This document shows, in pieces, positions 15,060 to 53,741 of a stretch of DNA of 64,000 bases (position 1 is its first letter; every line of letters starts with the position of its first letter). Below the pieces are notes generated by a model, which saw only the letters and a program-made list of their open reading frames with translations, ran no database searches and was not told the DNA's origin. Position numbers and translations under genes: made by a program. The DNA is from an uncultured Verrucomicrobiae bacterium (GTDB lineage: Bacteria > Chlamydiota > Chlamydiia > Chlamydiales > Rhabdochlamydiaceae). The stretch spans positions 1,024,001 to 1,088,000 of the forward strand of contig OY970364.1 of the NCBI GenBank assembly GCA_963718565.1, read 5' to 3'.

Positions 15060-15272
15060 TTAGACATTTTTTAATACTCTGAAATCGACAGGTGAAGTCA
15101 AAATCAAATATTTACCCGGCTTTTCAGGCTTTCCCTTGATAGATATCGCTTGATCATCCCTGTGTGCATCACAAGCAAGCCGATAGTCTTCTTGGGATAA
15201 TACCGCGCGAATCTGGCAAGGCCTGCCTTTTTCAGTCTCCCACTCGATAACAATTGTTCCGTAGAGTTCCAT
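15060..15272 (-). pseudogene. Probable C-terminal fragment of a hypothetical protein cut at the element A boundary
   Basis: ATG lies within the 18-bp repeat; LSQEDYRLACDAH....ISIKG reads like a C-terminal domain. Confidence 0.5.
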
Positions 15273-15285
15273 AACATGTAACAGG
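15268..15285 (+). repeat. 18-bp direct repeat copy 2; candidate left end of element A
   Basis: Identical to 13929-13946; ~70 bp outside the arm-like repeats. Confidence 0.8.
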
Positions 15286-15345
15286 GCAAAGCTTAAGGAA
15301 TTAGAGAATTTTCTTCAATGTAGAAATCCGTGAAGTCCCGTGTGG

Positions 15346-15382
15346 TTTTGTGGGCCAATGCAGCAATAATGCAGCATTTAGG
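15346..15382 (+). repeat. Arm-type integrase site candidate (left)
   Basis: TTTTGTGG gcc AATGCAGCAAT AATGCAGCATT TAGG, matching 35731-35764. Confidence 0.65.
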
Positions 15383-15429
15383 CGATCGATTGCTATTTTT
15401 AGAGCCCAGGGGTTATCCAGTGTCATTTT

Positions 15430-16206
15430 CTAAAACCGATACCCGAATATGAGACGAGTTCCATAAATGTTTTGAACTTCCGCAAAGGTAAGCTTGAGGA
15501 AATAGGGTTCAAGCTGAATATCCCACCTCTTCTTAGAACCAACTCGCCAAATCAGAGGGATTCCAATTTCCCCTCCCCATAAACCATTATGAGTGACCCG
15601 TTTCAATCTCAAGAATCTCCATTTTTCCTCTCTATACATGGAGCCGAATATCTTAAAATTTACGCCAAGGTTAAAGCTCTTTGAAAGTTCATATTGAGAG
15701 CGAACCCCTCCGCCTAAATAGGAGATGCTTTCATCAAAATGGTGATGATCACTACCACTGCCAAAACTATTTTCTCCGATGCATAAAAAGGGCGTTGTTA
15801 ACCATCGAGGTGTAGAAATAGTATATCCAAACCGCATTTCAAGATTGCCAAAACCGGTTCTTCCATCACTCTGAGGAAAGCCCCCTCCCTTAAACGATTC
15901 ATGAAACCCGTGATTCGCGCCGGCAACCAGAATGTCTATTCCAAAATAAAAAGCATCAGGTTTTAAGTACTCATATCCGATTTTCAAACCTAAAAAAAAT
16001 TTAGCACCATGAACCCTTACACCATTAAAATGGCTATTCAGATCTAGACAAAAAACTTCCGGACCAAAGTAAATGAAATTTGGATTTTTTCGAAAGGTTG
16101 ACACCATATCCGTCTTAGTCTCTTCGCCAAGCTTGGTCTCTACGCAATATAGACTAAGGCTAGTGGCGATCGTTAAAACATTAAACGATAATAATATTTT
16201 ATTCAT
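15430..16206 (-). CDS. Outer-membrane beta-barrel protein
   Basis: Signal peptide; amphipathic strands (LGLKIGYEY, LEMRFGYT, WDIQLEPYF); C-terminal GYRF. Confidence 0.8.
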   Translation of the reverse strand: MNKILLSFNVLTIATSLSLYCVETKLGEETKTDMVSTFRKNPNFIYFGPEVFCLDLNSHFNGVRVHGAKFFLGLKIGYEYLKPDAFYFGIDILVAGANHGFHESFKGGGFPQSDGRTGFGNLEMRFGYTISTPRWLTTPFLCIGENSFGSGSDHHHFDESISYLGGGVRSQYELSKSFNLGVNFKIFGSMYREEKWRFLRLKRVTHNGLWGGEIGIPLIWRVGSKKRWDIQLEPYFLKLTFAEVQNIYGTRLIFGYRF

Positions 16207-16295
16207 ATAACCGATTTAATTGTTAATACTATTTGTTGTTCATTTGATTGTGATAGTATCTGAACTCATCGTAACTCTGGGGTGTAATCTTTCTT

Positions 16296-17714
16296 TCAGA
16301 AATTCACAACATTACCAGTAAAAAATCCAGTATGATCCAGTCCCCCATTATCTAGAGGCAGCTGCCCTCGTTTTTTCTTCCGTTTCCTAAAAGGATTAAA
16401 GAGCTGACGCCTTTGCGAATAAATTGTCTCGCCAATATTCATTGCGGCCCACGCTTTCACTTGTTTTTTGTTACAGGTTCCTAGTGCTGCTTGAACAGTT
16501 TCTAAGTCTAACTTTCCCAGACAGGCGGCCAATGACAGCACAAAAGGGGTAAATCCGTCCTTTGAGTCTTCATCCATCAATTGCTTTAACTTACCAAAAC
16601 TAGACTCAATAATTTCTGTGCTACCTAAAGCCACTTGATCGAGGTCTTTTGTCTGATCAATCACGAAATCAAGGATACTGCCTGCAAACTGATCAGCACG
16701 GACCCCTACTTGCAGGTTCTGTAGCTCTTTTTCCAACTCCTCTGCAGTTTTGTTGTGGAGGTGTTCTGTTCGAATTTTTTGTCTTACGATTCTCCCAATG
16801 AGCAACATCTCGGATATTTCCTTGATCATAGGCTCACTGGATCTGACCCATCCAAATTGCTCAAGCAATTCCCTCAAGTCCGCCTCGCTCTTTTCGACCT
16901 CACAATTCTTCTGTTCTATTTTTTTCTGATGTTCATTTTCCATTTTTTTGAGGTGATCTAGAATTTTATTTGCCCAGCCGGTTAGTTCGTCAAGATTCAT
17001 ATATCTAGCTTTACTCCTCTGACTCGGAGGGCATAGTGCTGCCCATTTCGTCCATTGGAGTTTCTGCTTCATCTGAGAGGCTTTCGACGCAAATTCTGTC
17101 CATTCAAGTTCCGCAGCTTCCACCCCCAACAAGTTGGCTATTTTGTGAGCAATATCATTCATTACGGGAATTTTTCTGCCTTCGGCTTCTTGGACGCTCT
17201 GCGTATACAATCTGGTTGCAGATACAATATCCGATCCTTGATCATGACAAAATTGTCTGTATTGACCTACTGTCTCTTCACTTTTCTTGAGAATCTCATA
17301 GATGATTGGGCCACTTGTTTTTTCCAAAACCTCCAGGTGCAGAACGTGTACGTCTTCAAATGTCAATGCCTTAGCTTTCAAAAAAGTCGTAGCCCGTACG
17401 CCCAGAATCAAAAGACATTTTTTTGAGCCAATCTGAATAGATAAATCGATCATCCCAATCCAATCATTTGATTTCTGAATTGAGGTCAGCTTGTAATAAC
17501 CCACCTGCAAGATCCAATCGCGAATCGCAGTATGAGAGGGCATTTTGCATTGTAGCCAAAAATAACAGCGAATGAACGCCTCTCTGGCTCCGCGAAGGCT
17601 TAGTCCTCCTGAAAGAATCAATAGGAGCGATATCAGGATAACAGTTGCCGAATAGCGCCGACGAGGGATTTTTTTGTCTTGTTCCCCCGGGAGGCTTGTT
17701 GCTGCATCTGCCAT
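16296..17714 (-). CDS. Putative DDE transposase (OrfB)
   Basis: WIGMIDLSIQIG, CHDQGSD, DIAHKIAN (C/DxxH), STEIIESSFGKLK; inside the TIRs. Confidence 0.75.
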   Translation of the reverse strand: MADAATSLPGEQDKKIPRRRYSATVILISLLLILSGGLSLRGAREAFIRCYFWLQCKMPSHTAIRDWILQVGYYKLTSIQKSNDWIGMIDLSIQIGSKKCLLILGVRATTFLKAKALTFEDVHVLHLEVLEKTSGPIIYEILKKSEETVGQYRQFCHDQGSDIVSATRLYTQSVQEAEGRKIPVMNDIAHKIANLLGVEAAELEWTEFASKASQMKQKLQWTKWAALCPPSQRSKARYMNLDELTGWANKILDHLKKMENEHQKKIEQKNCEVEKSEADLRELLEQFGWVRSSEPMIKEISEMLLIGRIVRQKIRTEHLHNKTAEELEKELQNLQVGVRADQFAGSILDFVIDQTKDLDQVALGSTEIIESSFGKLKQLMDEDSKDGFTPFVLSLAACLGKLDLETVQAALGTCNKKQVKAWAAMNIGETIYSQRRQLFNPFRKRKKKRGQLPLDNGGLDHTGFFTGNVVNF

Positions 17715-18010
17715 TTTTTTTTAAGTTCTTCGAACTCTTTAGCATGGGTAACAGCCTCTTGTTCGCGTAATTTTCTTTCTGCCTCGATCAAAGCCTCTTT
17801 TTCTGCGATTTCATTTTTTAAGGCTTTATTTTCTTGAGTTTTTTCTTCACACTTCTTTTTCCACTGGGCTCTACTGTGCTCAAGATCTAATGCTTTACCC
17901 TCTAGTGCCTTAATTTTTTCTGCTTTCTCGCGATTTCTCGCTTTGAATTCATCGCGACTCTCGCAAAGACGATGGCTTCGCTTACGCCAATCTCGTGATG
18001 GAACATTCAT
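17633..18010 (-). CDS. IS OrfA, coiled-coil; likely fused to OrfB by a -1 shift at an A9 run
   Basis: CTT AAA AAA AAA TGG at 17711-17725; OrfB is in the -1 frame. Confidence 0.7.
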   Translation of the reverse strand: MNVPSRDWRKRSHRLCESRDEFKARNREKAEKIKALEGKALDLEHSRAQWKKKCEEKTQENKALKNEIAEKEALIEAERKLREQEAVTHAKEFEELKKKWQMQQQASRGNKTKKSLVGAIRQLLS

Positions 18011-18300
18011 AGAGCTGCTCTCCTAAAATTAAGACGAGCCATTTTGCATGATTGTTTTAACAGAGTCAAAAAAATTTCCTTAGAAGAGAATTTTCAATAT
18101 CCCCCTACAAAGTATTGCATCAATAAAGCCCGATACATCGAGAGCGGCTCTTCCTGAGCCGATCTCGATGTATCGGAACAGCGCCGTAGGACGCTGGGAA
18201 TATAACTGGGATGAGTCAGAGGGTTTAATATCAGAGGGGGGATGTTACCGTTTCTTGCCGGAATTGTTGCTCAGAGAAAATTTCAAATATGGATCAAAGT

Positions 18301-19056
18301 TTACACCCCATCGTAACTCATGCCATTGTATTGGCTACTTTTTTTCCATTTGTTATAAGCCTCTTTGATATCATTGGCTCCTTTGATTATTTTTAAAACA
18401 GTGTCAATCCAATCTTTTACTTCCAAACACCATTTTGTGAATTTTTTCCAAAATGATTTATGCTTACAAAATTCGATTGAATAATCATCTTGAGCGCTGC
18501 TGAATAATAAATCGCCACCTAATGGTAGCGGGTCAGCGAATTGAAATGCGGGCAACAGTTCCTCAGCCATATCTTCGACCAGGGAAAATAAAAGCTCTCT
18601 TATTTCGGATGAAGGAGCAAGAATGGCTAAATTTTGCAAAAATTGTAGAGCAACTTTAGATTCTTCATATGTCGTCTGACTGCATTCATCTTTTTCAGAA
18701 GGAAGATCATCCCCATCATCGTATTCATTGAAATTTAGAAATAATGAGCCTATGGCTTGTTTGCATTGATCATGAAATCCCAAGCAGTCATACGCGATCA
18801 CTTGACCGAAGGTGATTAGAAATCCAATAGGGCAAGAGGAGCTGTCGGATTTGTCCAGAAGTGAATTAGCTCTTTGAAACTGCTCTAGGGCTTTCCATGG
18901 TTCATGTGATAGTAGATGAACGTTCCCATAGCTAAAGTACAATAAGGCTTCATTTTGCCATTCTTGTAGCGGATAATGAAATTCATTAGAAGTTTCCTCC
19001 GAAAAGATCGGTAATCCAGTGATGAAGAGCAGTGCTGAGATCATCCATTTGATCAT
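18301..19056 (-). CDS. Secreted TPR-like hypothetical protein; native C-terminus displaced to 16229-16277 by the IS
   Basis: Signal peptide, GGAGG RBS, YFSYGNVHL...ALEQFQRA; removing the IS restores ...MSYDEFRYYHNQMNNK*. Confidence 0.8.
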   Translation of the reverse strand: MIKWMISALLFITGLPIFSEETSNEFHYPLQEWQNEALLYFSYGNVHLLSHEPWKALEQFQRANSLLDKSDSSSCPIGFLITFGQVIAYDCLGFHDQCKQAIGSLFLNFNEYDDGDDLPSEKDECSQTTYEESKVALQFLQNLAILAPSSEIRELLFSLVEDMAEELLPAFQFADPLPLGGDLLFSSAQDDYSIEFCKHKSFWKKFTKWCLEVKDWIDTVLKIIKGANDIKEAYNKWKKSSQYNGMSYDGV

Positions 19057-19229: not shown

Positions 19230-19631
19230 CTAATCTGGTTTATACAAACAGTCACGATCACGAGCCTTAGCAGTAAGCTGTTTGGCTGTGGCTTTTATTC
19301 TGCTTTCAGAAGAAAGTTTGGAAAAATTAATGAGGGAATGAGACTTATCCTGAACAGGAGCTTCAATTGGGTCGCTTTCGATTGACAACGAGTCCAGTAT
19401 CGATACTTCTTCAACAGTTACCCCCCATACTCCTATTGACTGTAAGTTTTTTCCTTTTGTATGGAGATCAAAAGCCTCACGAGCTGAGGTCATAGAGCTA
19501 CGATTTACAGAAAGTTTCTTGTCATCCTTTTCTGTTGGTAAAAAGGCTTGGCTAGTCACACGAGATTCCCTAATGAAATTAGGATGCACCTGTCTCAAAA
19601 GAAGCTCATCTTGATCTTCAAAGGGGGCCAT
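19230..19631 (-). CDS. Hypothetical protein, possible ADP-ribosyltransferase-like fold
   Basis: LLLRQVHP...VTSQAF...KLSV...HSLI; 19 bp downstream of its partner gene. Confidence 0.7.
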   Translation of the reverse strand: MAPFEDQDELLLRQVHPNFIRESRVTSQAFLPTEKDDKKLSVNRSSMTSAREAFDLHTKGKNLQSIGVWGVTVEEVSILDSLSIESDPIEAPVQDKSHSLINFSKLSSESRIKATAKQLTAKARDRDCLYKPD

Positions 19632-19650
19632 AAAAGAGCTCTCATTATTT

Positions 19651-20793
19651 CTATTCGTGAATTTTACGCAATAAGTTATTCAAGAATTGCTTTGCTTTTT
19701 CAATGGATTCTTGATCTTGTAAAAACAACCTATCTTCCTGAACCGCTTGTGAATTAACGTGGGCCGCGTGTAAAACTACTGCTTTTTGAGCTGGCAGAAA
19801 TGAAAATGAGGTGTCCCAGTAACCAAGAGACCACTCACACTCGATTACGCCATGATCAGCGGGATAAATAAAAGGTGCCGGAATATCGCCAGCTTTTAAA
19901 AGATTTTCGAGCCATTCTCGCACAACAACAACATCTGATTGCCTAAACGTTTCTCCACTGCCATCTAGCCAGCCTTTTTTTAAATCCCCCAGGGTGTCAA
20001 ATTGTGCCTTGGGATTTGGAAAGAATTCGGGGATGCCCTCTTGATAAACAATAAGATGTTGCAGTTTTTTGATTTCAGCTACAGAACCATCCGGTTGATA
20101 CCTAGCTAATCCCACTAGTGTCACTGCGATGTCTTGTTTTTTGTACTTGGGAGCGATATCTCTCAGCAGCATATCAAATGAGGGGTCAAGAGGTCCTTCG
20201 ATAGCTTGACCATCTTCAAGCACAACAAATAATTTTCTTTTTTCAGCCTCAAATCCAGATATAGAGCCGGTGAGATAGCAAACATCAAGATAAGGTCTTT
20301 TATTGATAGACAGAATTTTCGATCGAATTTCTTTAGAGTAGATAGATGAAGTATTTTTTCTAGGTATCCGTAATTCTATAGAATCGCCCTGGTCCAGACT
20401 TTTGCCCAAGTCCTCAAAAAGAGAGATAACTTTCTTAGGAAATTTTTCAAACGGTTTCTGAGTGCTAACTGAAGAAATGAACTCATTTAGTAAATCACGA
20501 GCTTGATCAAACTCATCTTCTTCCTTATGTTCACTTTCAAATTCACGGGACAAAACAGATACAACGCTTCCAGGTTCAATGTCAGTTAGACTTAATTTGA
20601 AACGTTCTTGAAAGGCTTTTGGAAGACGCGTCTTACCTTTATGAGTGGAAAAATACAGTTCCTTTGCTATTGCACGAATAATGGCCTCGTAAGCCATGAA
20701 ATCAGGAAATGCCTGAATAGGCAGATGATGATTAGTAAAACGATCTCCTTTGAACACGGGTTCAATGAATGGAATCGAAAAATCTTTTTTCAT
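19651..20793 (-). CDS. Multidomain hypothetical protein
   Basis: F.GDRF..H.LP N-terminus, beta-rich middle, C-terminal L..GWLDG.G...PFIYP..HG.I..EW. Confidence 0.75.
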   Translation of the reverse strand: MKKDFSIPFIEPVFKGDRFTNHHLPIQAFPDFMAYEAIIRAIAKELYFSTHKGKTRLPKAFQERFKLSLTDIEPGSVVSVLSREFESEHKEEDEFDQARDLLNEFISSVSTQKPFEKFPKKVISLFEDLGKSLDQGDSIELRIPRKNTSSIYSKEIRSKILSINKRPYLDVCYLTGSISGFEAEKRKLFVVLEDGQAIEGPLDPSFDMLLRDIAPKYKKQDIAVTLVGLARYQPDGSVAEIKKLQHLIVYQEGIPEFFPNPKAQFDTLGDLKKGWLDGSGETFRQSDVVVVREWLENLLKAGDIPAPFIYPADHGVIECEWSLGYWDTSFSFLPAQKAVVLHAAHVNSQAVQEDRLFLQDQESIEKAKQFLNNLLRKIHE

Positions 20794-21099: not shown

Positions 21100-24000
21100 C
21101 TATAGTTTTGCGTTACTCATGCGAGCCTTTAATCCTTCATAAAGTTGTGCAGGTCCCAGTAAAACATCTTTTAGGCCTTGACGCACCTTTGGCGAATCCA
21201 AAGCCTGTCTGCTCATAGTAGAATGTGCACTAAGAGCATCCATGATCGCCATTTCAATTCCCCTAGCCAAATCGGATGAATTAGCAAACTGCTCTTTGGA
21301 ATTACTTGCTGCCTGCTGCATCAAGGTTGTTGATTCCATCAGTTTTCCCTTGATCACGTTATTGACATACACCAGCTTATCCTCATCTGTCAGTTCCCCA
21401 TCAAATAAGTCATTCACCTGTTCGATAATTTCGATAAGGAATGCTTTTTCCTTTGTTTGTACAGAACCTGAGCCGGATTCTGTAATCGGTTGTAATTTAG
21501 TAGGCTCACTATCTCCTAGTGGCAAATCGCTCTTACCCTGATTTTTTAGATTGTGATGAGTGAGGACGATTTTTGAGAGGTCGATCCCTTCGCGCTCACG
21601 TCCAAACTCTAGCAGAGGAAGTAGTCGTTTGTAAAAAATGAACCGCTTTTCAATAGCAGTGTTTCCATAATCAAAAATTTGAGAAAGAAATGTGTACATA
21701 TGCTGAAATGATCCAATATCGCGTTTGAAAAGTTCCAATGCATTCAGTTCATTTTGGGCCTTTTCTTCACCTACCAAATCCTCTGCTGCCTTGGCTAACT
21801 TGAGTTCCTCTTGAGCCTTTTTGTAATTCCTCAAGAGTCGATATGCAACAGGTTCCAATGCTTTAAAGAGTTCGCTCTGTTTAGCAAGAGGATTTAATGC
21901 CACCTCAATTACGCGATCGACATCAGAATCATCATAGTATCCCGCCTGATCCAACTTAGCGCGCAAATTGAACACTAAATTCGGATCCGTGACGTCTTCC
22001 AGTTCCGCTGTAGTGTGATATGTTTTGAATGCATCCAGGACCTCTATCACATTGTTCACAAAATCCAATACATAGGTCGTTTCCTTACCGGAATGGGCCC
22101 GATTTAGACGAGAAAGCGTTTGAACCGCCTGGATTCCTCCCAATTTCTTATCCACGTACATACCGCATAACAAGCTTTGATCGAAACCCGTTTGGAATTT
22201 ATTGGCAACCAGCAGGATTTGATATTCGTCAGTGGCGAAGGCTTCGCTTATCTCTCGTCCACGCAAATTAGGATTTAATGCCTTATTGTTTTCTGTAAAG
22301 GGGTCGGGACCGGATTCTATATCGATGACTTCCCCAGAAAATGCCACTAGAGTACCGATTTTATACCCCTCGCCGCGGATATATCGATCTATGGCCAACT
22401 TCCAACGTACCGCCTCAACGCGACTTCCTACAACCACCATAGCCTTGGCTTGACCATTTAGCAAAGGTGCGACATTTTCGCGGTAGTGTTCTACAACGAT
22501 TTGGACTTTTTGAGAGATGTTATAGGGATGCAGCCGTACCCAGCGCATGATGTCTTTTTTTGCAGTACTCCGTTCAATTTCCTTTTCATCATATTCCTGA
22601 CCATCATTTGCCAATTTGAATGCCAATTTATAAGGCATATAGTTTTTCAGTACATCAAGTATAAATCGCTCTTCAATCGCTTGGCGCATGGTATAGACAT
22701 GAAAGAGCATGGGTAGATTATCGGGTCCAGCTGGACAATCAGGGCGAGGGCGACGGCCGAATAATTCGATGGTTTTCGCCTTAGGCGTAGCCGTAAAGGC
22801 TATATAGGTAATGCCCACCTCTTTAGCACGAGCTGCCATTTGGGCTGTTAATAAATCTTCAGTGCTGACTCCGCCTCCGTCTTGCAATTCTTGAAGTTCC
22901 TCTGATGACAGTACTGCTTTCAATTTGGCGGCAGCTTCCCCCGTTTGTGACGAGTGGGCTTCATCAGCGATCACTGCAAAGCTTTTACCCTGAGTCGCAA
23001 GCTTCTGCACAGTCTTGAGGGCATGAGGGAATGTTTGAATTGTACACACTACGATTTTCTTATCGCCAGATAAGGCCTGAGCCAGTTCTTCGCTCTTGCT
23101 CGCACCTTCTCCCTTAATAGTTGCAACAACCCCGGTAGTGCGCTCGAATTCAAATATTGCTTCCTGTAACTGAGTATCAATCACGTTACGATCTGACACC
23201 ACAAGAATCGAGTCAAAAAGCTTTTTGTTCTGTGAATCATGCAAGTCGGCAAGAAAATGTGCTGACCATGCGATAGAATTGGTTTTTCCTGATCCAGCGG
23301 AGTGTTGGATGAGATATTTACCGCCTGGTCCTTCTTGTAATACAGCAGCGACAAGTTTGCGAGTGGCATCCAGTTGATGAAAGCGGGGAAAGACAACACT
23401 TTCGATCTGTTTCTTGCCATTCTTGTGGGTCACGAGATAACGGCCCAGTATTTCGAGCCAGCTATCTCTAGACAAGACATTTTCCCACAGGTAAGCAGTG
23501 CAGTGGCCATGCTCATTCAGGGGGTTTCCAGCCGCACCATCAGGACACCCTTGATTAAAAGGCAGAAATCGAGTCACTGCGCCTTCCAACTTTGTAGTCA
23601 TGCGTACTTCTCTATTGCTCACAGCAAAATGGACTAGCGCCCCATTCGGGAATGATAGTAGCGGTTCCGCGGCATGTCCTTGAGGTTTTGGAAGGCGATC
23701 GAAACGATACTGATCTACCGCGTCCTCGACGCTCTGCGTAAAATCAGTTTTAAGCTCAATAGTGGCTACTGGAAGTCCATTCAGGAAGAGTACTAGATCG
23801 ATACAGCTTTCGTTATGCAGCGAATAACGCACCTGTCGTATCACGCGCAGACGATTTGCATTGTATTTGGCCAGAATGTCAGAATTTAAGGTGTGTGCTG
23901 GTTTAAATTGTGCCAGGTTCAATGGCTGACGTGCCCCGTGTATTTCAAAGCCATGTCGCAATATCTCCAGCGTGCCACGTGTATCCAGTTGAGCACGTAG

Positions 24001-27588: not shown

Positions 27589-27837
27589 TTAATTATCGAA
27601 CGATTGCAAAAGGTTTTTGCTGTGACGGATTAAAGTCATAGCCTCCCGGTGCAAGGCTCGGGCTTCTTGTGTGTTCCCACCATGTCGTAGGGCTGCCCGG
27701 CGAGCGCTCTCTTTTCCCTTTTTGGTTTTCGGCCCTCTTGAAGTTCCCCCGTGCATATGACAGGTATGCCTTCCGCGGACAGCCCATTTGAGGCACCCTT
27801 GCTTCGATCTTTTACTTTTTGCTGTACACCGAGCCAC
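27589..27837 (-). CDS. HGGxSTG-domain protein
   Basis: RCTAKSKRS..GC...CHMHGGTSRGPKTKKGK...ALRHG. Confidence 0.88.
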   Translation of the reverse strand: MARCTAKSKRSKQGCLKWAVRGRHTCHMHGGTSRGPKTKKGKESARRAALRHGGNTQEARALHREAMTLIRHSKNLLQSFDN

Positions 27838-28476: not shown

Positions 28477-28503
28477 AATTTTGCTCCTTTAGTATGAGAA
28501 TCC

Positions 28504-28615: not shown

Positions 28616-28616
28616 A

Positions 28617-31082: not shown

Positions 31083-31088
31083 AATATC

Positions 31089-31298: not shown

Positions 31299-31390
31299 GC
31301 TTGCTCCTAGTAATTATGACTTTTCGTCATTTACTTTCTTTATATGTGGAGCAATATAATTGATTGTACTAGATGCGCTTATCGGACAAG

Positions 31391-38163: not shown

Positions 38164-38175
38164 AAGGGAGAGAGA

Positions 38176-46048: not shown

Positions 46049-46049
46049 A

Positions 46050-47390
46050 CTACTTTCCCTCTTGATGGTTGTCTCTCGTATGGAGCCAAAACCCTTCTAT
46101 TTTTTCCAGACTTTTAATATATGCAACCAACTCGTCTATAGGAATTTTCGGATATTTTTCGATAAGAGCGACGTGGTTTTTTGGAGAAGCAGAGTATTGA
46201 TCAATTTTTCTGAAAAAAATCTGTTCTAAGAATCCCTTTAAATGCGTTCTCTCAAAGAATTTAGCAATGTTTTGTAATTTTGAATCCTCAACAGACACCT
46301 TCTGGCCTGGTTCAGTTTGAAGTAACAGTTGCATTAATCGTTGATTCGATGAGTCATTCTTGAATTTATGTACTATAAAGCATTCTGCTTCTGCATCCTT
46401 AAACCAAACCACTTCAAGCTGAAGCTCATTATCATCTAATTTTAGCTGAAGCGAGTAAGGCGTAATTTCTTTTGGAGCAATACTTTCATTAACATCAATT
46501 TCTTGATGAAGGAGTATTTTGTTCAGGATAGGCTTCAAATATTGGATAAAACGATCTCTTTGAAAAAAGCGAATATGTTGTGGAATTTTACCATTTTTAA
46601 TCTGGTGCATTTCTACCCAATAAGCATGATTACTCATCAGAGAGTTACTCTTTGCACAAGCCTCAATATCCTGAGATTCGAGAATCTTGTTCTCAAAATA
46701 AGATGAGGGGATCTTCCAACACCATTCAGCAAGCAGGAAATGTTCCCACATAGCCCATTCATGATCGAGGTTATCCCATAGAAAGGCTTTGTTAAGGGCG
46801 AGCAGCTGAGTACGGACTGGAGCAAAACTAAAACTCAGAAAACTGGGCACTTGGACGTAGGTCACTTCTTGCGTTTTTGGATTGACTTTAGAACCATTCG
46901 TATAGACGATTTCACCAAAGTCTTTCATCAAATCTACACGTCCTACTTCAAGGATACTTCCGCATAGCCCACAAAGACGATCATAAGCAACCTCGTAATA
47001 TGGCGGAGTAAAGTATCGATGACCATCTCTTCCTTCCAATACGTTTTCTACCGATGATAACCCCTGATTTATTGCAGGATTTTCAATCATGTTTTCAGAA
47101 TCTAAAAGAGCACGCACCTTGGCAAATACGTCATGCATTTCTTTAATCGCAGCCATCTCGGTCCTCTCATATTTCTTCTTGAAATCAGACTTATCTTTGA
47201 CCCACTGAAGATAAAACGGCCCAAACGCCTTAGCTTTTGTAAGAAGAGGCACGATACTTTCTGTGAGAATTTTGAAGAACGATCGTAAGTTATACTCAGC
47301 AAAAAGCTCGTCAGCAAAATGACCTAATGTCTTAAAGCTTCCTGCCCGAAACAGATCGATATATCTTCTATGAGTTTCAACTGTCTTCAT
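46050..47390 (-). CDS. Hypothetical protein, first gene of the R-M operon
   Basis: 446-aa ORF ending 1 bp before the hsdM start; no motif recognised. Confidence 0.75.
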   Translation of the reverse strand: MKTVETHRRYIDLFRAGSFKTLGHFADELFAEYNLRSFFKILTESIVPLLTKAKAFGPFYLQWVKDKSDFKKKYERTEMAAIKEMHDVFAKVRALLDSENMIENPAINQGLSSVENVLEGRDGHRYFTPPYYEVAYDRLCGLCGSILEVGRVDLMKDFGEIVYTNGSKVNPKTQEVTYVQVPSFLSFSFAPVRTQLLALNKAFLWDNLDHEWAMWEHFLLAEWCWKIPSSYFENKILESQDIEACAKSNSLMSNHAYWVEMHQIKNGKIPQHIRFFQRDRFIQYLKPILNKILLHQEIDVNESIAPKEITPYSLQLKLDDNELQLEVVWFKDAEAECFIVHKFKNDSSNQRLMQLLLQTEPGQKVSVEDSKLQNIAKFFERTHLKGFLEQIFFRKIDQYSASPKNHVALIEKYPKIPIDELVAYIKSLEKIEGFWLHTRDNHQEGK

Positions 47391-47597
47391 CTCAAAATAT
47401 TACCTTACAAAACCTTACAAAAGGATAACAGATCAAGATAAGTTTTTCTAGTGAAACTCAATACCCATGCTTTTGGGTTCAAAAAATTCCCATACAGTTC
47501 CCACGAACTTCCCATTCCCCATCGAGAATATTAAGGAAAAATTCCCATTTGCTCCCCTCAAAGAATAGTGGAACAAAATATTAAGTATCATCCGATT

Positions 47598-47768
47598 ATG
47601 AAAAGCAGAGATCCCCAATTTCCTCGTATGAAGTCTGAGGTAAAGGAATTTTCCAACCTCGCGGGATTCTTTGCGCTTTTGTACCAAATTGACCGCAGAA
47701 ACAAACAAGCAAGTAGCTCGAAAAATGAAGATCAAAAAAGTAGAAATCGTCCCAGTCAAGCCCTCTAA
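47598..47768 (+). CDS. Small hypothetical protein
   Basis: NLAGFFALLYQIDRR; overlaps the SpoVG-like start; start codon uncertain. Confidence 0.45.
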   Translation: MKSRDPQFPRMKSEVKEFSNLAGFFALLYQIDRRNKQASSSKNEDQKSRNRPSQAL

Positions 47769-47988
47769 TGGGTTGATAGGGTTTGCTCATTTGTTCATTG
47801 AAGATGGGCTTTATCTCGGTTCTATCGGAATTCTCACGAAAAGAGATGGAGGGGGTTATCGATTGACGTACCCAACTCGACGAGTAGGAGAAACCAATAT
47901 TACGATCTTTCATCCAACCACTAGCGAATGCAGCAAGAATTTTGAAAAAGCGGTCTTTTTGGAGGTAGAACGAGTGTTTGGAACATAA
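47725..47988 (+). CDS. SpoVG-family nucleic-acid-binding protein
   Basis: MKIKKVEIVPVK..NGLIGFA....D.LYLGSIGI......YRLTYPT. Confidence 0.75.
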   Translation: MKIKKVEIVPVKPSNGLIGFAHLFIEDGLYLGSIGILTKRDGGGYRLTYPTRRVGETNITIFHPTTSECSKNFEKAVFLEVERVFGT

Positions 47989-49987
47989 ACTTTATAACCC
48001 CTCAAAGAGGTAGCAAAAATGTATATCACTGAATGTCTAAACAGAATAGAAACAAAAACAGGCTTTCGACCTAAGAAAGAAGGGAGCAGCTATAAAGCGT
48101 GCTGCCCAGCCCACGATGATCAAAACCCAAGTCTTTCCATAAAGGAAGTAGATGGAAAACTTCTCCTGCATTGTTTTGCAGGATGTTCTCCTGAGAAGAT
48201 TTGTTCAACAATTGATTGCAATATCAGCGATCTATTTCTCAATGGGCCGGAAAAATCCTCTGTCACTAAATACCCGTACAAAGATGAACAAAGTAATGTC
48301 CTTTTTACAAAAGTGAGATATGAACCTGGATTGAGAGGGCAAAGCAAAAGTTTTTATTGGGAAAGAGTTGATGCGAATGGAAATATCATTCAAAACTTAA
48401 AAGGATGTCGAAAAATTCTCTACCGTCTGCCAGAACTTTTGGAAGGCATAGCAGGAAATCAGACCATTTTCCTTGTCGAAGGAGAAAAGGATGCAGATAG
48501 ATTAGCACAATGCGGTCTCGTTGCCACCACCACACAAGGTTCTCTTGTTTGGTCCAAAGAATTCACAGAAATCCTTCGCGAGGCAGACGTTGCTATTTTA
48601 TATGATATGGATAAAACGGGAGTTGAACGTAGAGATTTGCTCTGTAAAGAACTAAATGGACAGGTAAAGCGCTTACGTGTGATCGATCTACCCGATCTCG
48701 AATACCAACCATCTCATGGCCAAGACATTAGCGACTGGCTCAATCAGGGCCATACTATTTCGGAGATGCTAGAGCTTCTCGAAAAAACATCAAATTATTC
48801 CCCCAGAGAGAAAAAGAAAATTCGGATTGTGTCGTTGAATGAATTTTTAGAACTGGTATTTCCTCCTCGAGAAAACCTTCTATCCCCATTTCTCCCAGAA
48901 CAAGGTATGTGCATGATCTATGCAAAGCGTGGAGTGGGCAAGACACATATTGCCCTCGGCATTGCTTTTGCCGTGGCTACAGGTGGTCTCTTTCTAAAAT
49001 GGTCGGCGTTAAGGCCTCGTAAAATCTTGTATGTCGACGGAGAAATGCCCGCAAGTGTAATGCAAGAAAGATTGAAAAGATTATCATCGATGTCCAATAC
49101 CCAATTGCCAGATCCTGATTTTTTTCGATTAATCACTCCCGATTTACAAGAGGATTCCTTGCCTGACTTATCTACAAAAGAAGGTCAATCTTTGATAGAA
49201 GAATCGCTCGGAGATAGTGTATTATTGGTTCTCGATAATATATCATCTCTTTTTCGGAGCATTGAAGAAAATGACGCCGATAGCTGGCAGGAGGTCCAAG
49301 ACTGGCTACTCAGACTGCGACGCAAAGGCAAATCCGTGCTTCTCGTGCATCATGCTGGTAAAAATGGATCGCAGAGGGGAAGTAGCAAAAAAGAAGACAT
49401 CCTCGATGCTGTCATGGTGTTGAAGCACACTTCAGGTCAGAAACAAAGCCAAGGAGCGAGCTTTGATATCCTTTTTGAAAAAACAAGGCATTTTCACGGG
49501 GTTGACGCAGAACCATTCCATGCAGAAATAAAAGAATTAGAAGAAGGGGTATGGATTTGGGAAATCAACGAGCCAACAATAGATTGCGCTGCCGACAAAA
49601 AGTTGGACAGAAAATCGAGGGGAATAAGTAACTCTCTGTGTTAAGTCTTTCTCTATAAGCCATTCTGCAGCTCATATTCGCTGCATATTATTCTAAGGTT
49701 ATATTTCCTACAATCTCTTTTTTTCTTTTCTTCTTTTTTCTCCAGTGAGAACTTTCCTGTTTTCGGGGGTGCGGGGGCGAAGCCCCGACCCTCCTCTTAT
49801 TCTGAAAAACAGACCTTATAATGCCCAAACTGAGGTGGATGGGGTAGGGGCCCCATCCGCCGAAGGCGGGAGCAGGGGGGACGGTAGTCCCCCGACAAGC
49901 CTTTCCCAAATAAGCCGGACAGGCTTCTTGAAAAGCCCTCGGAATGCTTGGCATATACGTACACAAACGTTCTTGGATTTTCAACTT

Positions 49988-50875
49988 TCATTTTTTTGCT
50001 TTTTTGACTTCGAATCCTTTGTACTCTCCTTTTGAATATTTGGGTTTGATTCCATGATAAATTTCATTGGGTGTCGCATACAATAAGGCCTGATGCGGTC
50101 TACTGCAATTGAAATGCTCGATATACTCATCAACCCCAGCACGCAGTGCTCTTACTGTTTCATAACGATGTAAATATATTTTTTCGTATTTCAGAGACCA
50201 CCAACCTCTCTCTTGATAGACGTTGTCAATGCACCTGCCCTTGCCGTCCATGCTGATCTTGATACCCCGTTGCCGCAATAATTCTAGAAACGCGGTGCTT
50301 GTAAATTGAGACCCTTGATCCGTGTTAAAATATTCTGGACACGTTTTCTGTAAGGCTATTTCTAGTGCTGCAAGACAAAAATCCACAGTTATAGTGTTCG
50401 AGAGCTCCTGAGCAAGCACGTATCTGCTAAACCAATCGGTCACTGTAATCAGATAGACAAAACCGTTAGCCAATGGGAGAAATGTTATATCGGCACTGAA
50501 AACCTGGTTAGGAGTTCCAATCCACAAACCATTTAATAAATAGGGATAGTGCGGGTGTGATGCGGAGGGTTTGCTGAGGTTTTTTCTGGGAAGAACAGAT
50601 AAAAACCCCATTTTTCTCCATAACCTCTCAATCCTTTTTTCATTCACGTTAAATCCCTCACGCCTTAAATCGGCATGTATTTTTCTATAACCATATTCGG
50701 GTTGCGCATAATGCAATTCTTCTATTTTCTGCATAAGAGCAAGGGTTTCCTCTGACTCTACTATAGGAGCATAGTAATAACTAGATCGAGGGAGGCCCAA
50801 CGCTTCACATTGAGCCTCGACAGATAACATGGGATGTTCAGGTTCAATCAACCTGCGTTTCTCAAGAGTTGTCAA
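49988..50875 (-). CDS. IS3 transposase OrfB (rve)
   Basis: YGYRKI, FSADIT, DWFSR, NTDQGSQFT, DNVYQER. Confidence 0.92.
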   Translation of the reverse strand: MTTLEKRRLIEPEHPMLSVEAQCEALGLPRSSYYYAPIVESEETLALMQKIEELHYAQPEYGYRKIHADLRREGFNVNEKRIERLWRKMGFLSVLPRKNLSKPSASHPHYPYLLNGLWIGTPNQVFSADITFLPLANGFVYLITVTDWFSRYVLAQELSNTITVDFCLAALEIALQKTCPEYFNTDQGSQFTSTAFLELLRQRGIKISMDGKGRCIDNVYQERGWWSLKYEKIYLHRYETVRALRAGVDEYIEHFNCSRPHQALLYATPNEIYHGIKPKYSKGEYKGFEVKKAKK

Positions 50876-51149
50876 CCCCGGTTTTTTTTTTCAAAAATTC
50901 GAGCTGAGACTGAAGCCTGCCTATTTGGGCATAAAGCGCCTCAATGTCTATATCTGGGGCCGATTTTTTTTTACGCCTATCTTCAAACAGCCGCGAGATG
51001 CCTTGAACTGCTTGACTTTTCCATTTGGTGATTTGTGCTGGATGTATTTTGAATTGTTGGGCCAAGTCTGATAGTGTCTTGTCTTCCTTTAATGCCTCAA
51101 GCGCTACCCTGCCTTTAAAACTGGCTTGGTGCGAGATTCGTTTAGCCAT
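50862..51149 (-). CDS. IS3 transposase OrfA (HTH); -1 frameshift at an A10 run (50882-50891)
   Basis: FKGRVALEAL...IHPAQITKWK...LYAQIGRL..LEFLKKK. Confidence 0.92.
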   Translation of the reverse strand: MAKRISHQASFKGRVALEALKEDKTLSDLAQQFKIHPAQITKWKSQAVQGISRLFEDRRKKKSAPDIDIEALYAQIGRLQSQLEFLKKKTGVDNS

Positions 51150-51381
51150 AATGTTTTTCTCCTTTTTGTTTTTTTAGAGAAAAACTTTACACTCGATTTA
51201 ATTTCTTATTCCAGTGTCCAGTTTTTGGGGGGCAGCGCAGATGGTGAAATTCTTGATGTTGCGAAAGGAGTAACTGAAGGTCTTTCCATAAAAGAGATCT
51301 CTGATAAATTCCGCCTTACGAAATCTCAAGTTGAGACGAGAAAACAAAAAGCTGAAAGCCTTGGGCTTATATAAAAACAGT

Positions 51382-51430
51382 CCCCTTCCGATTTTCCGAT
51401 TCCTATAGAAAAAGAAGAAATCGGAAGGGG
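51382..51430. promoter_or_regulatory. Putative origin (or terminator) after the element B primase
   Basis: CCCCTTCCGATT TTCCGATT ... AATCGGAAGGGG. Confidence 0.5.
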
Positions 51431-51447
51431 CTTATTCAGGAGGAATC

Positions 51448-51927
51448 ATGGCAACCGAAAAACAAATCAACGCCAATCAGCGTAATAGCTTAAAATCAAC
51501 TGGACCAACATCAGGGTCCGGCAAAGCAATAGTGGCGCAAAACGCTATAAAGCATGGGATTCTTTCAGCTAAAATCGCTATGGATGAACAAGAGCAAAAA
51601 GACTTTTGCGTCTTCACATCCCAAATGCAAGCATATTTTACGCCGACAAATAGCTTGGAAGAGCTACTTATTGACCGGATTATTTCAAACACATGTCGAC
51701 TTCGAAGAGTCATTCACATTGAGACCCTAATGCTCAAAAGTTGTATCCGAAACGACTGGGAGAACAAAAACTATCAAGGCATTTTTGAAAGCGAATCAGG
51801 ACTAGCAATGACTACCCTTTCTCGCTATGAAAGATCACTAGAACATAGTATCTATCGAAGTCTGAAAGAGCTCCGAGAAATGAGAACACAGACCGAGATC
51901 AATGTTGATGCATTCATAGCAGTGTAA
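51448..51927 (+). CDS. Hypothetical protein with STGPxS..GK...NAxKHG motif
   Basis: MATEKQINANQRNSLKSTGPTS..GK....QNAIKHG; LSRYERSLE; AGGAGG RBS. Confidence 0.85.
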   Translation: MATEKQINANQRNSLKSTGPTSGSGKAIVAQNAIKHGILSAKIAMDEQEQKDFCVFTSQMQAYFTPTNSLEELLIDRIISNTCRLRRVIHIETLMLKSCIRNDWENKNYQGIFESESGLAMTTLSRYERSLEHSIYRSLKELREMRTQTEINVDAFIAV

Positions 51928-52014
51928 AAAAATGGCTTTGTTTCGTAAAAAATGGCCTTTTTCTTGTACTGTTTTGTAATCTTTGGCAATCTTATAAGGT
52001 TTTTAGAGGATAGT

Positions 52015-52209
52015 ATGAAGAAAATCGATGAGTACATGCACATTACAGAGGCGGCTAAATTTCTCGGTGTAACTGCCAATACTCTGAGGAACTGGGAAAA
52101 AGAACAAAAAGTCAAAGTCTATCGCAATCCTCAAAATCGGTATCGGCTCTATAAAAAAGAGGATTTAGCAATTCTATTGGATAAAATCCATGAATCCTTA
52201 AGTAAATAA
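52015..52209 (+). CDS. MerR-like HTH / excisionase
   Basis: ITEAAKFLGVTANTLRNWE...RNPQNRYRLY; GAGGA RBS; TAATG overlap with the integrase. Confidence 0.85.
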   Translation: MKKIDEYMHITEAAKFLGVTANTLRNWEKEQKVKVYRNPQNRYRLYKKEDLAILLDKIHESLSK

Positions 52210-53708
52210 TGATGAAAGCAATTCTATTCGCAAGAGTTTCAAGTAGAGATCAAGAAGAGGGGCAATCTATTCCCTCTCAAGTAAGAAGGCTCAGTGAATA
52301 TGCTCTTAAGAAAAATTTACAAGTCGTAGAAATTTTTCAGATCACCGAATCTTCTACCAAAGAGACTCGTAAGCAATTTGATAAGATTCTAGCCTGTATC
52401 AAACAGTCAAAGCAGCCGATCGCCTTAATCACCGACACTGTGGACCGCCTACAGAGGAGCTTTCGAGAAACCCCCATTCTAAATGAAATGAGACTTGCAG
52501 GAAAGCTTGAATTGCATTTTCTAAGAGAGGGTTTGATTGTCAATCTAAATGCCAATAGCTCACAGCTAATGCAATGGGATATTGGAGTCTTATTTGCATC
52601 GAGTTATGTTCGTCAACTAAGCGATAACGTTAAAAGGAGCAAAGAACAGAGCGTCCGAAACGGGGAATGGATCACAAGAGCACCATTTGGCTATAAAAAC
52701 GTCACACTCTCAACAGGCAAAAAGATCATTGAAGTTGACGCTGAAGAAGCTCCTTTTGTGGTTAAGATGTTTGAACTTTATGCAACTGGCCTCTATTCCT
52801 TTCAAACCATCTCGAACAAAATGACCGAATTGGGATTGAAAAATTCATTGGGAGATCCAATCGGGCCAAGCAGGGTCGAGTTAACCCTGAAAAACCCGTT
52901 TTATTTTGGTTTGATGAAAGTCAAAGGAGAGCTTTATCCTCACAAATACCCTCCTTTGATTTCAGAGTCCCTATTCGATCAAGTACAAGATGTAATGGCA
53001 GGACACAATAAAACCCCATTCAAGTATGCAGGCAACCCAATCCTATTTCGGGGATTAATTTCATGCGAGAACTGTGGTTGCACAGTTACAGGCGATATCA
53101 AAAAGAAAAAATACATCTATTACAGCTGCAACAACTCAAAAAAAATATGCCAAAAAACTTGGGTACGAGAGGAAAAGCTGCTAGAACCTCTTGTGGAATA
53201 TCTCGACCGAATTCAACTGCCAGATGCTTTAATTGAAGATATCATAAGCTACCTAAAGCAAGCCTACTCTCATGAACAGGAGTTCTTCAAGCATTCTCAA
53301 GAAATCCTTCGCAAGGAACTTGATACAATTCAGACAAGATTATCAAAATTAGTTGATATGCATTTGGATGGAGCCCTTGATTCTGATACATACAACGCAA
53401 AGCTGGAAGAATATAAAAAAAGACAGCGTGAGATTACTTCTGAAATGAAGGCTCATGTTAATGCAGATGAAACCTGTCTGATTACGGCGAAAACGGTGCT
53501 GGATCTAGCCAAACGGGCGAAGGAACTGTTCATGAGTTCGAAATTAGAGGAAAAACAGCAATTGTTAAATTTCGTCTTTTCGAACTTGAAATTAGATGGG
53601 AAAAGGCTGGCTGTAACACTGAGAGAACCGTTTTCAACGATCCTGGCAGTGTCACATCAACCAGTAGATCTCCGGATGCAAGATTCGAACTTGCGACCAA
53701 TGGATTAA
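52209..53708 (+). CDS. Large serine recombinase (integrase)
   Basis: ARVSS..Q, DRLQRS, APFGY, NPFY.G, CENCG...YYSC Zn ribbon, coiled coil. Confidence 0.95.
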   Translation: MMKAILFARVSSRDQEEGQSIPSQVRRLSEYALKKNLQVVEIFQITESSTKETRKQFDKILACIKQSKQPIALITDTVDRLQRSFRETPILNEMRLAGKLELHFLREGLIVNLNANSSQLMQWDIGVLFASSYVRQLSDNVKRSKEQSVRNGEWITRAPFGYKNVTLSTGKKIIEVDAEEAPFVVKMFELYATGLYSFQTISNKMTELGLKNSLGDPIGPSRVELTLKNPFYFGLMKVKGELYPHKYPPLISESLFDQVQDVMAGHNKTPFKYAGNPILFRGLISCENCGCTVTGDIKKKKYIYYSCNNSKKICQKTWVREEKLLEPLVEYLDRIQLPDALIEDIISYLKQAYSHEQEFFKHSQEILRKELDTIQTRLSKLVDMHLDGALDSDTYNAKLEEYKKRQREITSEMKAHVNADETCLITAKTVLDLAKRAKELFMSSKLEEKQQLLNFVFSNLKLDGKRLAVTLREPFSTILAVSHQPVDLRMQDSNLRPMD

Positions 53709-53741
53709 CAGTCCACTGCTCTACCGCTGAGCTAATCCGGA
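53670..53741 (-). tRNA. tRNA-Asn(GTT)
   Basis: TCCGGAT TAGCTCAGCGGTAGAGC A GTGGA-CTGTTAA-TCCAT TGGTC GCAAG-TTCGAAT-CTTGC ATCCGGA G; CCA not encoded. Confidence 0.97.

Follow-up and report, generated by a model that had tools for sequence, protein, structure and literature searches.

A 64,000-nucleotide stretch of chlamydial DNA (hereafter the window) carries two integrative elements, A and B, in tandem at the 3′ end of a tRNA-Asn gene. We read this locus as most probably an accretion island of two non-autonomous integrative elements, each made up of a recombinase, a few small DNA-binding or accessory proteins, a primase-helicase (with an adjacent origin in A) and a type I restriction-modification (R-M) system with nucleases. 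Judged from its junctions, B (17,844 bp) was inserted precisely by a large serine recombinase and is later than A. The window corresponds to positions C1:1024001-1088000 of its own genome, G000, a single contig of 2.28 Mb. By its protein relationships the host is an environmental chlamydia near the Rhabdochlamydiaceae: the nearest relatives of RecD2 (up to 93% identity) are labelled Rhabdochlamydia, Rhabdochlamydiaceae or Chlamydiae or, in several long-read metagenome-assembled genomes, 'Verrucomicrobiae'. This agrees with an earlier note on the same DNA, which had taken the host to be chlamydial and had proposed two tandem elements of parallel architecture. Indeed, we find two separate integrative elements in tandem that share a functional layout, are built from non-homologous parts and each carry an R-M system and nucleases as cargo. 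The region does not belong to the syntenic core, as the sequence upstream of tRNA-Asn is different in 18/18 relatives examined. Rightward from 53,914 the ordinary core genes recD2, metG, gmk, yicC, rnhB, rplS, trmD, rpsP and ffh follow. The tRNA-Asn(GTT) gene is the sole tRNA gene of the window and its 3′ end points toward the islands.

The Pfam scan covered 49 non-overlapping open reading frames (ORFs) of at least 80 aa in the window, with ORFs below 80 aa mostly left out. ORFs that Pfam did not explain were also run against PADLOC, PHROGs (27 ORFs) and NCBIfam, the PADLOC profiles being applied without the PADLOC system rules. Relatives are genomes of the same order (300-301 scored), and the loci taken from them, or in two cases (L115 and L116) from G000 itself, are labelled L005-L126. 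The limits of the two elements, the junctions of B and the target are as follows (IS, insertion sequence).

15.36-35.8 kb: element A, integrative element, read as the older one, inward of B
35826-53669: element B (17,844 bp; 16.2 kb once the IS3 is subtracted)
35822-35825: CTCC core at attL of B, former tRNA-Asn 3′ end; second copy at 53670-53673
52209-53708, plus strand: large serine recombinase (PF00239 Resolvase, PF07508 Recombinase, PF13408 Zn_ribbon_recom; phrog_95)
53669-53742, minus strand: tRNA-Asn(GTT), found with ARAGORN; integration target

The core CTCC consists of the last four bases of tRNA-Asn, and B is inserted exactly between the tRNA and A. An empty site for B, which the earlier note had named as a way to check its proposal, is present in the relative L011, where an A-type element is joined straight to tRNA-Asn with neither B nor an IS. 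Window positions 29737-32987 align with L011 positions 1-3245 at 86% and 35063-35825 with 3250-4012 at 92%; on the other side of B, 53670-53791 align with 4009-4131 at 91%, the 4-nt overlap of the alignments being the CTCC. The ends of B have no match in L011, and the A-type integrase of L011 is uninterrupted and immediately adjacent to tRNA-Asn. At attR the core has on its left 8 nt (AACCAGTA) that form the reverse complement of 8 nt on its right at attL (TACTGGTT). Inverted-arm symmetry with a short core is usual for serine-integrase attP sites, and the crossover of B has this design: a 4-nt core, reverse-complementary 8-nt arms and no long direct repeats. A homologous attL with the same core occurs in L112, from another chlamydial family, and contigs from two public sequencing runs start matching exactly at 35821.

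The serine integrase named in the earlier note is the large serine recombinase at 52209-53708, which overlaps tRNA-Asn. Its N-terminus reads ...ARVSSRDQ... (the RVSS serine motif) and, with the domains listed above, marks it as a large serine recombinase; among the NCBIfam models CcrB fits it best (E 4.9e-28), with a score far short of the cut-off for that family. The ORF crosses attR, so that its final 12 codons are tRNA DNA, and the computed lengths are 499 codons in the integrated and 523 codons in the excised form. With attP lying within the 3′ end of its own gene, integration alters the C-terminal tail of the integrase, and this change of form might serve to switch between the integrated and the excised state. 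As a well-defined serine integrase that targets tRNA-Asn, the enzyme could also be of use as a genetic tool for chlamydiae.

Gene content of elements B and A

Besides its recombinase, B contains the following features (pLDDT, predicted local distance difference test).

35898-37223, plus strand: DUF6602/NucC-like PD-DExK nuclease, 441 aa (PF20247, E 5.5e-25; PADLOC NucC-type effector, E 4e-33)
37213-38163, minus strand: 316-aa ORF, no Pfam, PADLOC, PHROGs or NCBIfam match
38176-39678, minus strand: TM0106-family RecB-like nuclease, Cas4-like plus RNase H-like (TIGR03491, E 1.8e-86; PF13482)
39635-46048, minus strand: type I R-M system of B (HsdR 39635-42604, HsdS 42591-43919, HsdM 43910-46048; Pfam and PADLOC)
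46050-47390, minus strand: 446-aa ORF directly upstream of hsdM, with 22-38% homologues at the same place in L110-L112
47485-47549, plus strand: 10-nt motif repeated three times between the divergent genes, a weak candidate for an operator or origin of B
47671-47988, plus strand: SpoVG-like 105-aa protein upstream of the primase (PF04026, E 2.8e-6, 27.8 bits, below the 29.6 cut-off)
48019-49584, plus strand: Zn-ribbon/TOPRIM/AAA_25 primase-helicase of B, 3′ end cut (aa 2-528 of a 571-aa paralogue)
49585-51239: IS3-family IS with orfA and orfB, 1,655 bp, GAT 3-bp target duplication, inside the primase gene
51279-51371, plus strand: displaced C-terminal primase tail (aa 541-571 of the paralogue, 61%)
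51448-51927, plus strand: 159-aa all-helical protein with N-terminal STGPxTxxGK...NAxKHG motif (predicted coiled coil, pLDDT 86)
51952-52209, plus strand: MerR/HTH_17 excisionase-type DNA-binding protein (PF00376, PF13411, PF12728; TIGR01764 below cut-off)

Type I R-M systems in both elements, as claimed before, are recovered with Pfam as well as PADLOC. Both are predicted to be complete, with three separate genes in B and HsdR plus an HsdM-HsdS fusion in A. The two elements also differ in their primases as previously described, A having a prim-pol with helicase and B the Zn-ribbon/TOPRIM/AAA_25 type, whose phage and plasmid relatives reach 33% identity at most. Next to the R-M genes of B, the TM0106-family nuclease has homologue fragments beside HsdR in L112, and the 446-aa ORF gave no match in Pfam, PHROGs or NCBIfam and nothing above 0.76 in a protein atlas. 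The 10-nt motif occurs three times within 65 bp, compared with 0.035 per kb genome-wide; one copy lies at the same place in L110 and none in L111-L113. Homologues of the SpoVG-like protein are found in L111, L112, L113 and L071.

The recombinase and helix-turn-helix (HTH) genes of B are intact, and its primase is cut by the IS3 at about residue 528 of 571. This IS has three further complete copies (100%) and two partial ones (99.8-99.9%) in G000, its orfB protein occurring in six full-length 100% copies. The insertion also bears on the iteron-like block that the earlier note had placed right after each primase. For A the block stands, in the form of two clusters of 9-bp iterons; for B the GC-rich candidate at about 49645-49990 was rejected, as it lies inside the IS3. 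In intact B-type relatives only 53-80 bp separate the primase from the next gene. A small HTH protein had likewise been assigned to each element. It is present in B, where Pfam identifies a MerR/HTH_17 protein that is a candidate directionality factor, and is not confirmed in A, whose 69-aa ORF has no family match. Of the satellite core of integrase, AlpA-type regulator and primase, both elements have integrase and primase; for the regulator, B has the HTH_17/MerR protein, and no HTH family is detectable in the 69-aa ORF of A.

The 159-aa protein belongs to a very large family, with 14,804 cluster representatives when the limit is E<=1e-3 and still 2,561 when it is E<=1e-10. The motif (S/T)xGPx(T/S)xxGK...AxxHG, which the earlier note had seen in both elements, is borne out by an NCBIfam match and by a link between the 82-aa HGGxSTG-domain protein of A and the 159-aa protein of B: a profile of 80 relatives of the latter aligned with the former over 27 columns (hhalign 88.6%, E 2.6e-6). 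The predicted model of the 159-aa protein had no match in the PDB (best E 0.8), and the atlas gave unnamed clusters only, with ten cluster look-ups all returning 'hypothetical protein'.

Element A is listed here from left to right (TRD, target-recognition domain).

15359-15382, plus strand: left terminal tandem 11-bp repeat of A (arm-type or att-like), 24-nt motif
15430-16206, minus strand: 258-aa ORF, cargo or older DNA inside the repeats of A, no Pfam, PADLOC, PHROGs or NCBIfam match
16277-18310: 2,034-bp IS-like element (472-aa and 125-aa ORFs) inside the cargo of A, 8-bp target duplication
18301-19056, minus strand: 251-aa ORF, 3′ end abutting the 2,034-bp IS, no family match
19230-20793, minus strand: PDC-M32B (133 aa) and PDC-M32A (380 aa), candidate defence pair (PADLOC, E 1e-39 and 1.4e-72)
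21100-24219, minus strand: HsdR of A (HSDR_N, SWI2_SNF2, ResIII and T1R_D3 in Pfam; REase_I in PADLOC)
24216-26600, minus strand: HsdM-HsdS fusion, 794 aa, single TRD (HsdM_N, N6_Mtase, Methylase_S at 603-759)
26817-27572, plus strand: Cas4-like PD-(D/E)XK nuclease of A (PF12705)
27589-27837, minus strand: 82-aa HGGxSTG-domain protein (NF041373, 35.5 bits, cut-off 29)
27853-28476, minus strand: 207-aa partner of the HGGxSTG protein, assigned to the backbone by its recurrence
28496-28616: candidate origin of replication for A, with 9-bp iterons in two inverted groups of three round an AT-rich spacer
28617-31082, minus strand: prim-pol plus helicase, 821 aa (PF22763; phrog_1829 and phrog_13901 in the N-terminal half, phrog_29234 in the C-terminal half)
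31089-31298, minus strand: 69-aa conserved ORF in AlpA/Xis position (97% in L011, 83% in L026, about 33% in three others)
31391-32461, minus strand: 356-aa integrase-associated ORF, always following the A-type integrase (homologues in L026 and L011, fragment in L005)
32461-32991, minus strand: tyrosine integrase of A, C-terminal piece (PF00589; aa 192-368 of the L026 integrase, 84%)
32988-35062: IS4-like IS, 2,075 bp, with 608-aa DDE transposase, splitting the integrase of A
35036-35647, minus strand: tyrosine integrase of A, N-terminal piece (aa 1-200 of the L026 integrase, 73%, other frame)
35741-35764, plus strand: right terminal tandem 11-bp repeat of A, also beside tRNA-Asn in L011 and L026

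The 24-nt terminal motif of A has exactly two copies in the 2.28-Mb genome, in the same orientation (0/100 shuffles matched). The start given in the earlier note, 15268, lies 91 bp left of the left terminal repeat. A 35-nt direct repeat (13929-13963 and 15268-15302, 83% identity with an 18-nt exact seed) has only these two copies in the genome; considered as an att site, it showed no tie to att function and was rejected.

Seen from the tRNA side, the gene order of A is integrase, 356-aa ORF, 69-aa ORF, prim-pol/helicase, 207-aa ORF and HGGxSTG protein, followed by the nuclease, R-M and PDC-M32 cargo. The tyrosine integrase reported before is present (PF00589) but split into two pieces, in different frames, by the 2,075-bp IS, as seen against the intact 368-aa integrase of L026. 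This IS4-like IS has at least 14 full copies in G000 (99.7-100% identity) and is not present at this point in L011. Because the IS splits the integrase, A is probably immobile; in our reading of the sequence it arrived first and is now probably unable to move. The 356-aa ORF shows only a faint integrase-like C-terminus (E 0.016). For the 69-aa ORF we obtained no Pfam or NCBIfam match even at E<=1, a poor predicted model with pLDDT 61, and an hhalign probability of 0.6% against the HTH protein of B.

The iteron clusters of A (28496-28534 and 28589-28616) lie directly past the primase stop. L093 and L094 show the same layout behind their primase genes, built from unrelated repeats, and L115 has weak repeats only. 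The segment 28496-28616 is what an initiator-specific origin looks like, and we regard it as a putative one. G000 has at least two further elements at tRNA-type genes (tDNA elements) besides A and B: C, at the transfer-messenger RNA (tmRNA) gene, and D, at tRNA-Met. The pair of the 207-aa and HGGxSTG proteins recurs in C (48% and 66% identity), and a 28% homologue of the 207-aa ORF lies downstream of the primase in L093. The Cas4-like nuclease of A has a 71% identical paralogue next to HsdM in D.

The R-M genes of A have an unusual type I layout, as there is no separate hsdS and HsdM is joined to one HsdS TRD; PADLOC gave MTase_I (E 1e-257) plus Specificity_I for the 794-aa fusion. With its single TRD, the fusion would imply a symmetric recognition site. 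The 2,034-bp IS-like element has five full copies in G000 (99.9-100% identity), neither of its ORFs has a Pfam, PHROG, PADLOC or NCBIfam match, and it may represent an undescribed IS family.

Relatives of both elements in the order and in the same genome

B-type integrase matches (E<=1e-20) were found in 63/300 scored genomes of the order, one further genome being unscored. All seven full or near-full integrase homologues, which come from seven other families and are 76-79% identical, abut tRNA-Asn. In a sister clade with 50-53% identity, four of six loci examined abut tmRNA (L104, L106, L107 and L109) and the other two have no tRNA in a short locus. C-terminal integrase remnants abut tRNA-Asn in 8/12 cases and not in the other four; the eight (L117-L123 and L126) are genomes of other families with a 60-140-aa B-type integrase tail beside tRNA-Asn, resembling scars of lost elements. 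The family is thus patchily distributed and uses the same target in unrelated hosts, as expected for tDNA elements.

All three long loci that belong to the close clade (L110-L112) have primase, 446-aa ORF, HsdM, HsdS and HsdR in this same order, with HsdM and HsdR 74-77% and HsdS 31-34% identical; the 159-aa and the SpoVG-like protein are each found in two of the three. By this conservation the type I R-M system is part of the backbone of the B family. At the left end the cargo of B-type copies varies, with addiction-module genes in L110 and L112. The locus L113, from the tmRNA clade, has the same backbone of primase, 159-aa and SpoVG-like protein as B, and carries methyltransferases, a MerR/TipAS regulator, an AbiEii-type ATPase and SbcCD-like genes as cargo. 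RecD2 proteins of five carrier genomes are 54-60% identical to that of the window. Since the integrases (76-79%) and HsdM/HsdR (74-77%) are far more alike than RecD2, the comparison argues for transfer between chlamydial families, and it suggests that the B family spread between them by a route not encoded in the element.

Matches to the prim-pol of A occur in 16/301 genomes of the order and in neither of two genomes of the same genus. In each of the related A-type loci L026, L093, L094, L092 and L071 the integrase is followed by the integrase-associated ORF, the small ORF and then the primase/helicase, the helicase being joined to a prim-pol, to a TOPRIM primase or to a separate primase. Their cargo is variable (SNF2/DUF4379 helicase, Tad2-like protein, YafQ toxin, ankyrin/RING proteins). 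L026 encodes a Tad2-like (anti-Thoeris) protein at 3834-4196, and L071 three ankyrin-repeat proteins at 8270-13152, one of them with a RING finger; with such cargo, the islands can also move counter-defence and host-directed genes. For A itself, an empty site within the genus was sought in the same two genomes, which have about 75% DNA identity and no synteny upstream of tRNA-Asn, and no clean site was found. The earlier note had named, as an observation that would speak against it, homologous modules that always sit inside full prophages or conjugative elements; in nine related loci they form small islands free of phage structural and conjugation genes.

The two further elements of G000 are:

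L115 (G000:C1:943000-961000): element C, about 7.4 kb at tmRNA, minimal backbone with almost no cargo
L116 (G000:C1:166000-185000): element D at tRNA-Met, with a third type I R-M system

Element C consists of a tyrosine integrase, the associated ORF, a helicase, a 207-aa-like ORF and an HGGxSTG-like ORF. Element D encodes an AAA_25 primase, a relative of the 159-aa protein, T5orf172, a YhcG nuclease, a Cas4-like nuclease and the type I R-M system. A different 11-bp tandem repeat lies near both ends of D, together with a 51-nt partial copy of tRNA-Met, a design like that of A. As a further integrase is found beyond this partial copy, D is also part of a tandem array.

Mobility and comparison with known systems

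No capsid, tail, terminase, portal, relaxase or type IV secretion system (T4SS) family is found among the 49 window ORFs with Pfam or the 27 unexplained ORFs with PHROGs, in line with the earlier note, which had seen no capsid, tail, relaxase or T4SS genes. G000 gave no match to PF03354, PF03237 (TerL), PF05065 (HK97-type capsid), PF02534 (coupling protein) or PF03432 (relaxase), the controls for the TerL, capsid, coupling and relaxase searches being positive in 2 to 5 of 14 known genomes; Phage_F had no match in G000 either, a result without weight because its control was silent everywhere. Packaging and capsid-hijack genes (terS, ppi, sid/psu/delta, capsid) had no Pfam or PHROG match in A, B or the related loci. 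As no transfer or packaging genes were found, we consider the elements non-autonomous. G000 carries a ComEC homologue.

In the mechanism that we favour, the recombinase would excise the element as a circle, and the primase-helicase would replicate this circle episomally at its origin. The circle would reach another chlamydia in the same host cell by a route not encoded in the element, for example DNA uptake, a helper particle or a vesicle, and there the recombinase would insert it at the 3′ end of tRNA-Asn, pushing the older element inwards. A B-type element would then be a mobile R-M/nuclease island, which would restrict incoming DNA and probably also stabilise itself. The pressure from double-stranded DNA (dsDNA) phage that the earlier note derived from the defence cargo does not follow, since the R-M system travels as backbone of the B family; a selfish or stabilising role fits as well as defence.

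Several observations weigh against the accretion island as we propose it. The left crossover site of A was not found, and no partial copy of tRNA-Asn exists anywhere in the genome: queries with the tRNA 3′ end, exact, with 3 mismatches and with blastn-short (whole genome and left 27 kb), were all empty, in a local alignment 273/300 shuffles scored equal or higher, and the A-type element of L026 has no crossover repeat either. For B no origin was identified and the primase is cut by the IS3. Neither an excised circle nor an empty-site read was found, no public run containing more than 0.09 of the sampled words of B; contigs from the runs cover small shares only, with no joint across B, and no RNA run is listed among those with matches. 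The argument for horizontal transfer compares identities with one housekeeping protein and does not use trees. ComEC is present in most bacteria and hence gives weak support for an uptake route, and PDC-M32 is a candidate defence system only, with a predicted defence role.

The earlier note called both elements helper-dependent satellites, a designation that came from the layout only. Genes for hijacking or packaging were not found, and both elements are damaged by IS. In its fullest form this explanation sees A and B as satellites of the minimal PICMI type (phage-inducible chromosomal minimalist islands), for which a helper phage of chlamydiae, perhaps a virulent one, sets off excision and replication and then packages the DNA, with cargo that shields the host from competing phages. 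We think this rather unlikely, even though the layout of integrase, small regulator, primase, iteron origin and defence cargo within 16-20 kb fits it, neither element encodes a transfer route, and a real phage fragment with dUTPase, thymidylate synthase and endolysin contains a 42% identical member of the helicase family of A (phrog_29234). As far as the source on PICMI goes, three core genes without any capsid-remodelling gene are enough for a satellite, and some chlamydial plasmids are described as bearing terminase and tail genes (PMC7846284, in the part consulted). However, no terS, capsid, portal or interference gene is found in A, B or the nine related loci, G000 has no match to two large-terminase families or the HK97-type capsid, the AlpA-type regulator is unconfirmed in A, and the integrase of B has no close homologue in IMG/VR, its best relative there reaching 29%. 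To our knowledge, described satellites have neither a serine recombinase nor R-M as backbone, and we know of no tailed phage of chlamydiae isolated so far. A related speculation, to which we give a similarly low weight, is that A- and B-type elements are minimal satellites of so far unseen dsDNA phages of environmental chlamydiae, or vesicle riders, with the STGPxTxxGK/HGGxSTG family beside the primase as helper interface. If true, a satellite or vesicle route would explain how modules cross families of obligate intracellular bacteria without transfer genes.

Less probable still, the elements might be integrative mobilisable elements (IMEs) or integrated small plasmids that hitch-hike on the F-like T4SS of chlamydial plasmids or islands. 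The primase of B, with its Zn-ribbon/TOPRIM/RepA-like architecture, does have 28-33% relatives on small Streptomyces and Salinibacter plasmids, 77/107 plasmid records matching this primase being typed as non-mobilisable. Against this, no relaxase or coupling protein is found in the elements or in G000 and no oriT was recognised; G000 is a single contig, so that a plasmid might be missing from the assembly. In the literature, as far as consulted, T4SS are known in Parachlamydiaceae and Simkaniaceae (PMC7846284), and Dehalococcoides islands with the same recombinase family have been read as IMEs (PMC3146451), both of which speak for this explanation. We likewise give little credence to immobile, decayed remnants, kept for useful or addictive R-M systems and nucleases in a pattern of old vertical inheritance and loss: an IS sits in a key gene of both elements, many genomes keep only a 60-200-aa integrase tail beside tRNA-Asn, and G000 is IS-rich and heavily rearranged, but integrase and Hsd are far more alike between families than RecD2, B is absent from L011 despite an A/tRNA junction at 92% DNA identity, and the IS copies are 99.7-100% identical, which makes the insertions recent and places them after the arrival of the elements.

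Judged by analogy of layout, the closest described systems are the tycheposons of Prochlorococcus and the ssrA islands of Dehalococcoides. Tycheposons are described, in the part of the source consulted (10.1101/2020.12.28.424599), as cargo elements at tRNA/tmRNA 3′ ends. Like A and B, they rely on a tyrosine recombinase or, less often, on a large serine recombinase, primases, helicases or polymerases are found in many of them, the newest arrival lies beside the tRNA with older ones displaced into the island, and fragmented integrases and decayed remnants are common in hosts said there to be without conjugation and prophages. They differ in that their hosts belong to another phylum, chlamydial hosts being obligate intracellular, B leaves a 4-nt core and not a partial tRNA copy, R-M is backbone in B and not variable cargo, and no vesicle or capsid enrichment is known for A- or B-type elements.

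In the Dehalococcoides ssrA islands (PMC3146451, again in the part consulted), the CcrB-family serine recombinase DsiB inserts at tmRNA, several islands lie in tandem downstream of the target with the integration module at the junction, and no transfer genes are reported, the islands being interpreted as integrative mobilisable elements; the same source also treats the Ccr recombinases of SCCmec. The islands described there further have a direct repeat of 20 bp and an additional small serine recombinase, which B lacks, and, in that part, are said not to replicate by themselves. The likeness extends to CcrB as best NCBIfam match of the integrase of B and to the sister clade that abuts tmRNA. 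In contrast to these islands, B has a primase-helicase, a single recombinase, tRNA-Asn as target and R-M instead of dehalogenases. In SCCmec, a Ccr large serine recombinase likewise inserts a cassette at the 3′ end of an essential single-copy gene, and tandem or composite arrays occur; unlike B, the target is the protein-coding rlmH, two recombinases act together, no such primase-helicase backbone is present and the cargo is resistance. Phage-inducible chromosomal islands (PICI), P4-like elements and PICMI share with A and B the integrase, small regulator (confirmed in B), primase, iteron origin beside the replication gene (in A), defence cargo, a size of 10-20 kb and non-autonomy (for PICI and P4 as general background, for PICMI as far as the source goes), whereas here there is no known helper, no terS, capsid, sid, psu or delta gene, and no confirmed AlpA in A. 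The B family is set apart from the tycheposons and the ssrA islands by the combination of serine recombinase, primase-helicase and conserved type I R-M, and by its host.

The usual picture of chlamydiae is one of few mobile elements, namely plasmids, F-like T4SS islands, IS and, rarely, CRISPR (PMC8242063, PMC7846284, PMC9723776); as far as these sources were consulted, islands like A and B do not appear in them. Full-text literature searches found no description of the chlamydial elements reported here. With at least four tDNA-targeting integrative elements in one 2.28-Mb genome, three of them with type I R-M, our results point to an active, so far undescribed route of gene and defence-gene flow among obligate intracellular bacteria.

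Older DNA and repeats left of element A

The window begins with a copy of a repeat unit of about 226 bp (positions 1-199), which has more than 80 copies in the genome. An 864-aa superfamily 1 (SF1) helicase is encoded at 985-3579. PADLOC relates it to MkoA, MkoC and DpdJ, its N-terminus is faintly similar to Cas4, and it may represent a further defence gene, situated in older island DNA to the left of A. A 577-nt inverted duplication (3523-4099 and 4643-5219, 99%; span 3523-5219) brackets a truncated Mutator-family transposase ORF. Between the transposases and A, in the variable region, a 1,473-aa autotransporter with PATR repeats is encoded at 9486-13907. Beyond it, at 14080-14254, follows a 175-bp hairpin-bearing unit with about 20 copies in the genome, which resembles a miniature inverted-repeat transposable element.

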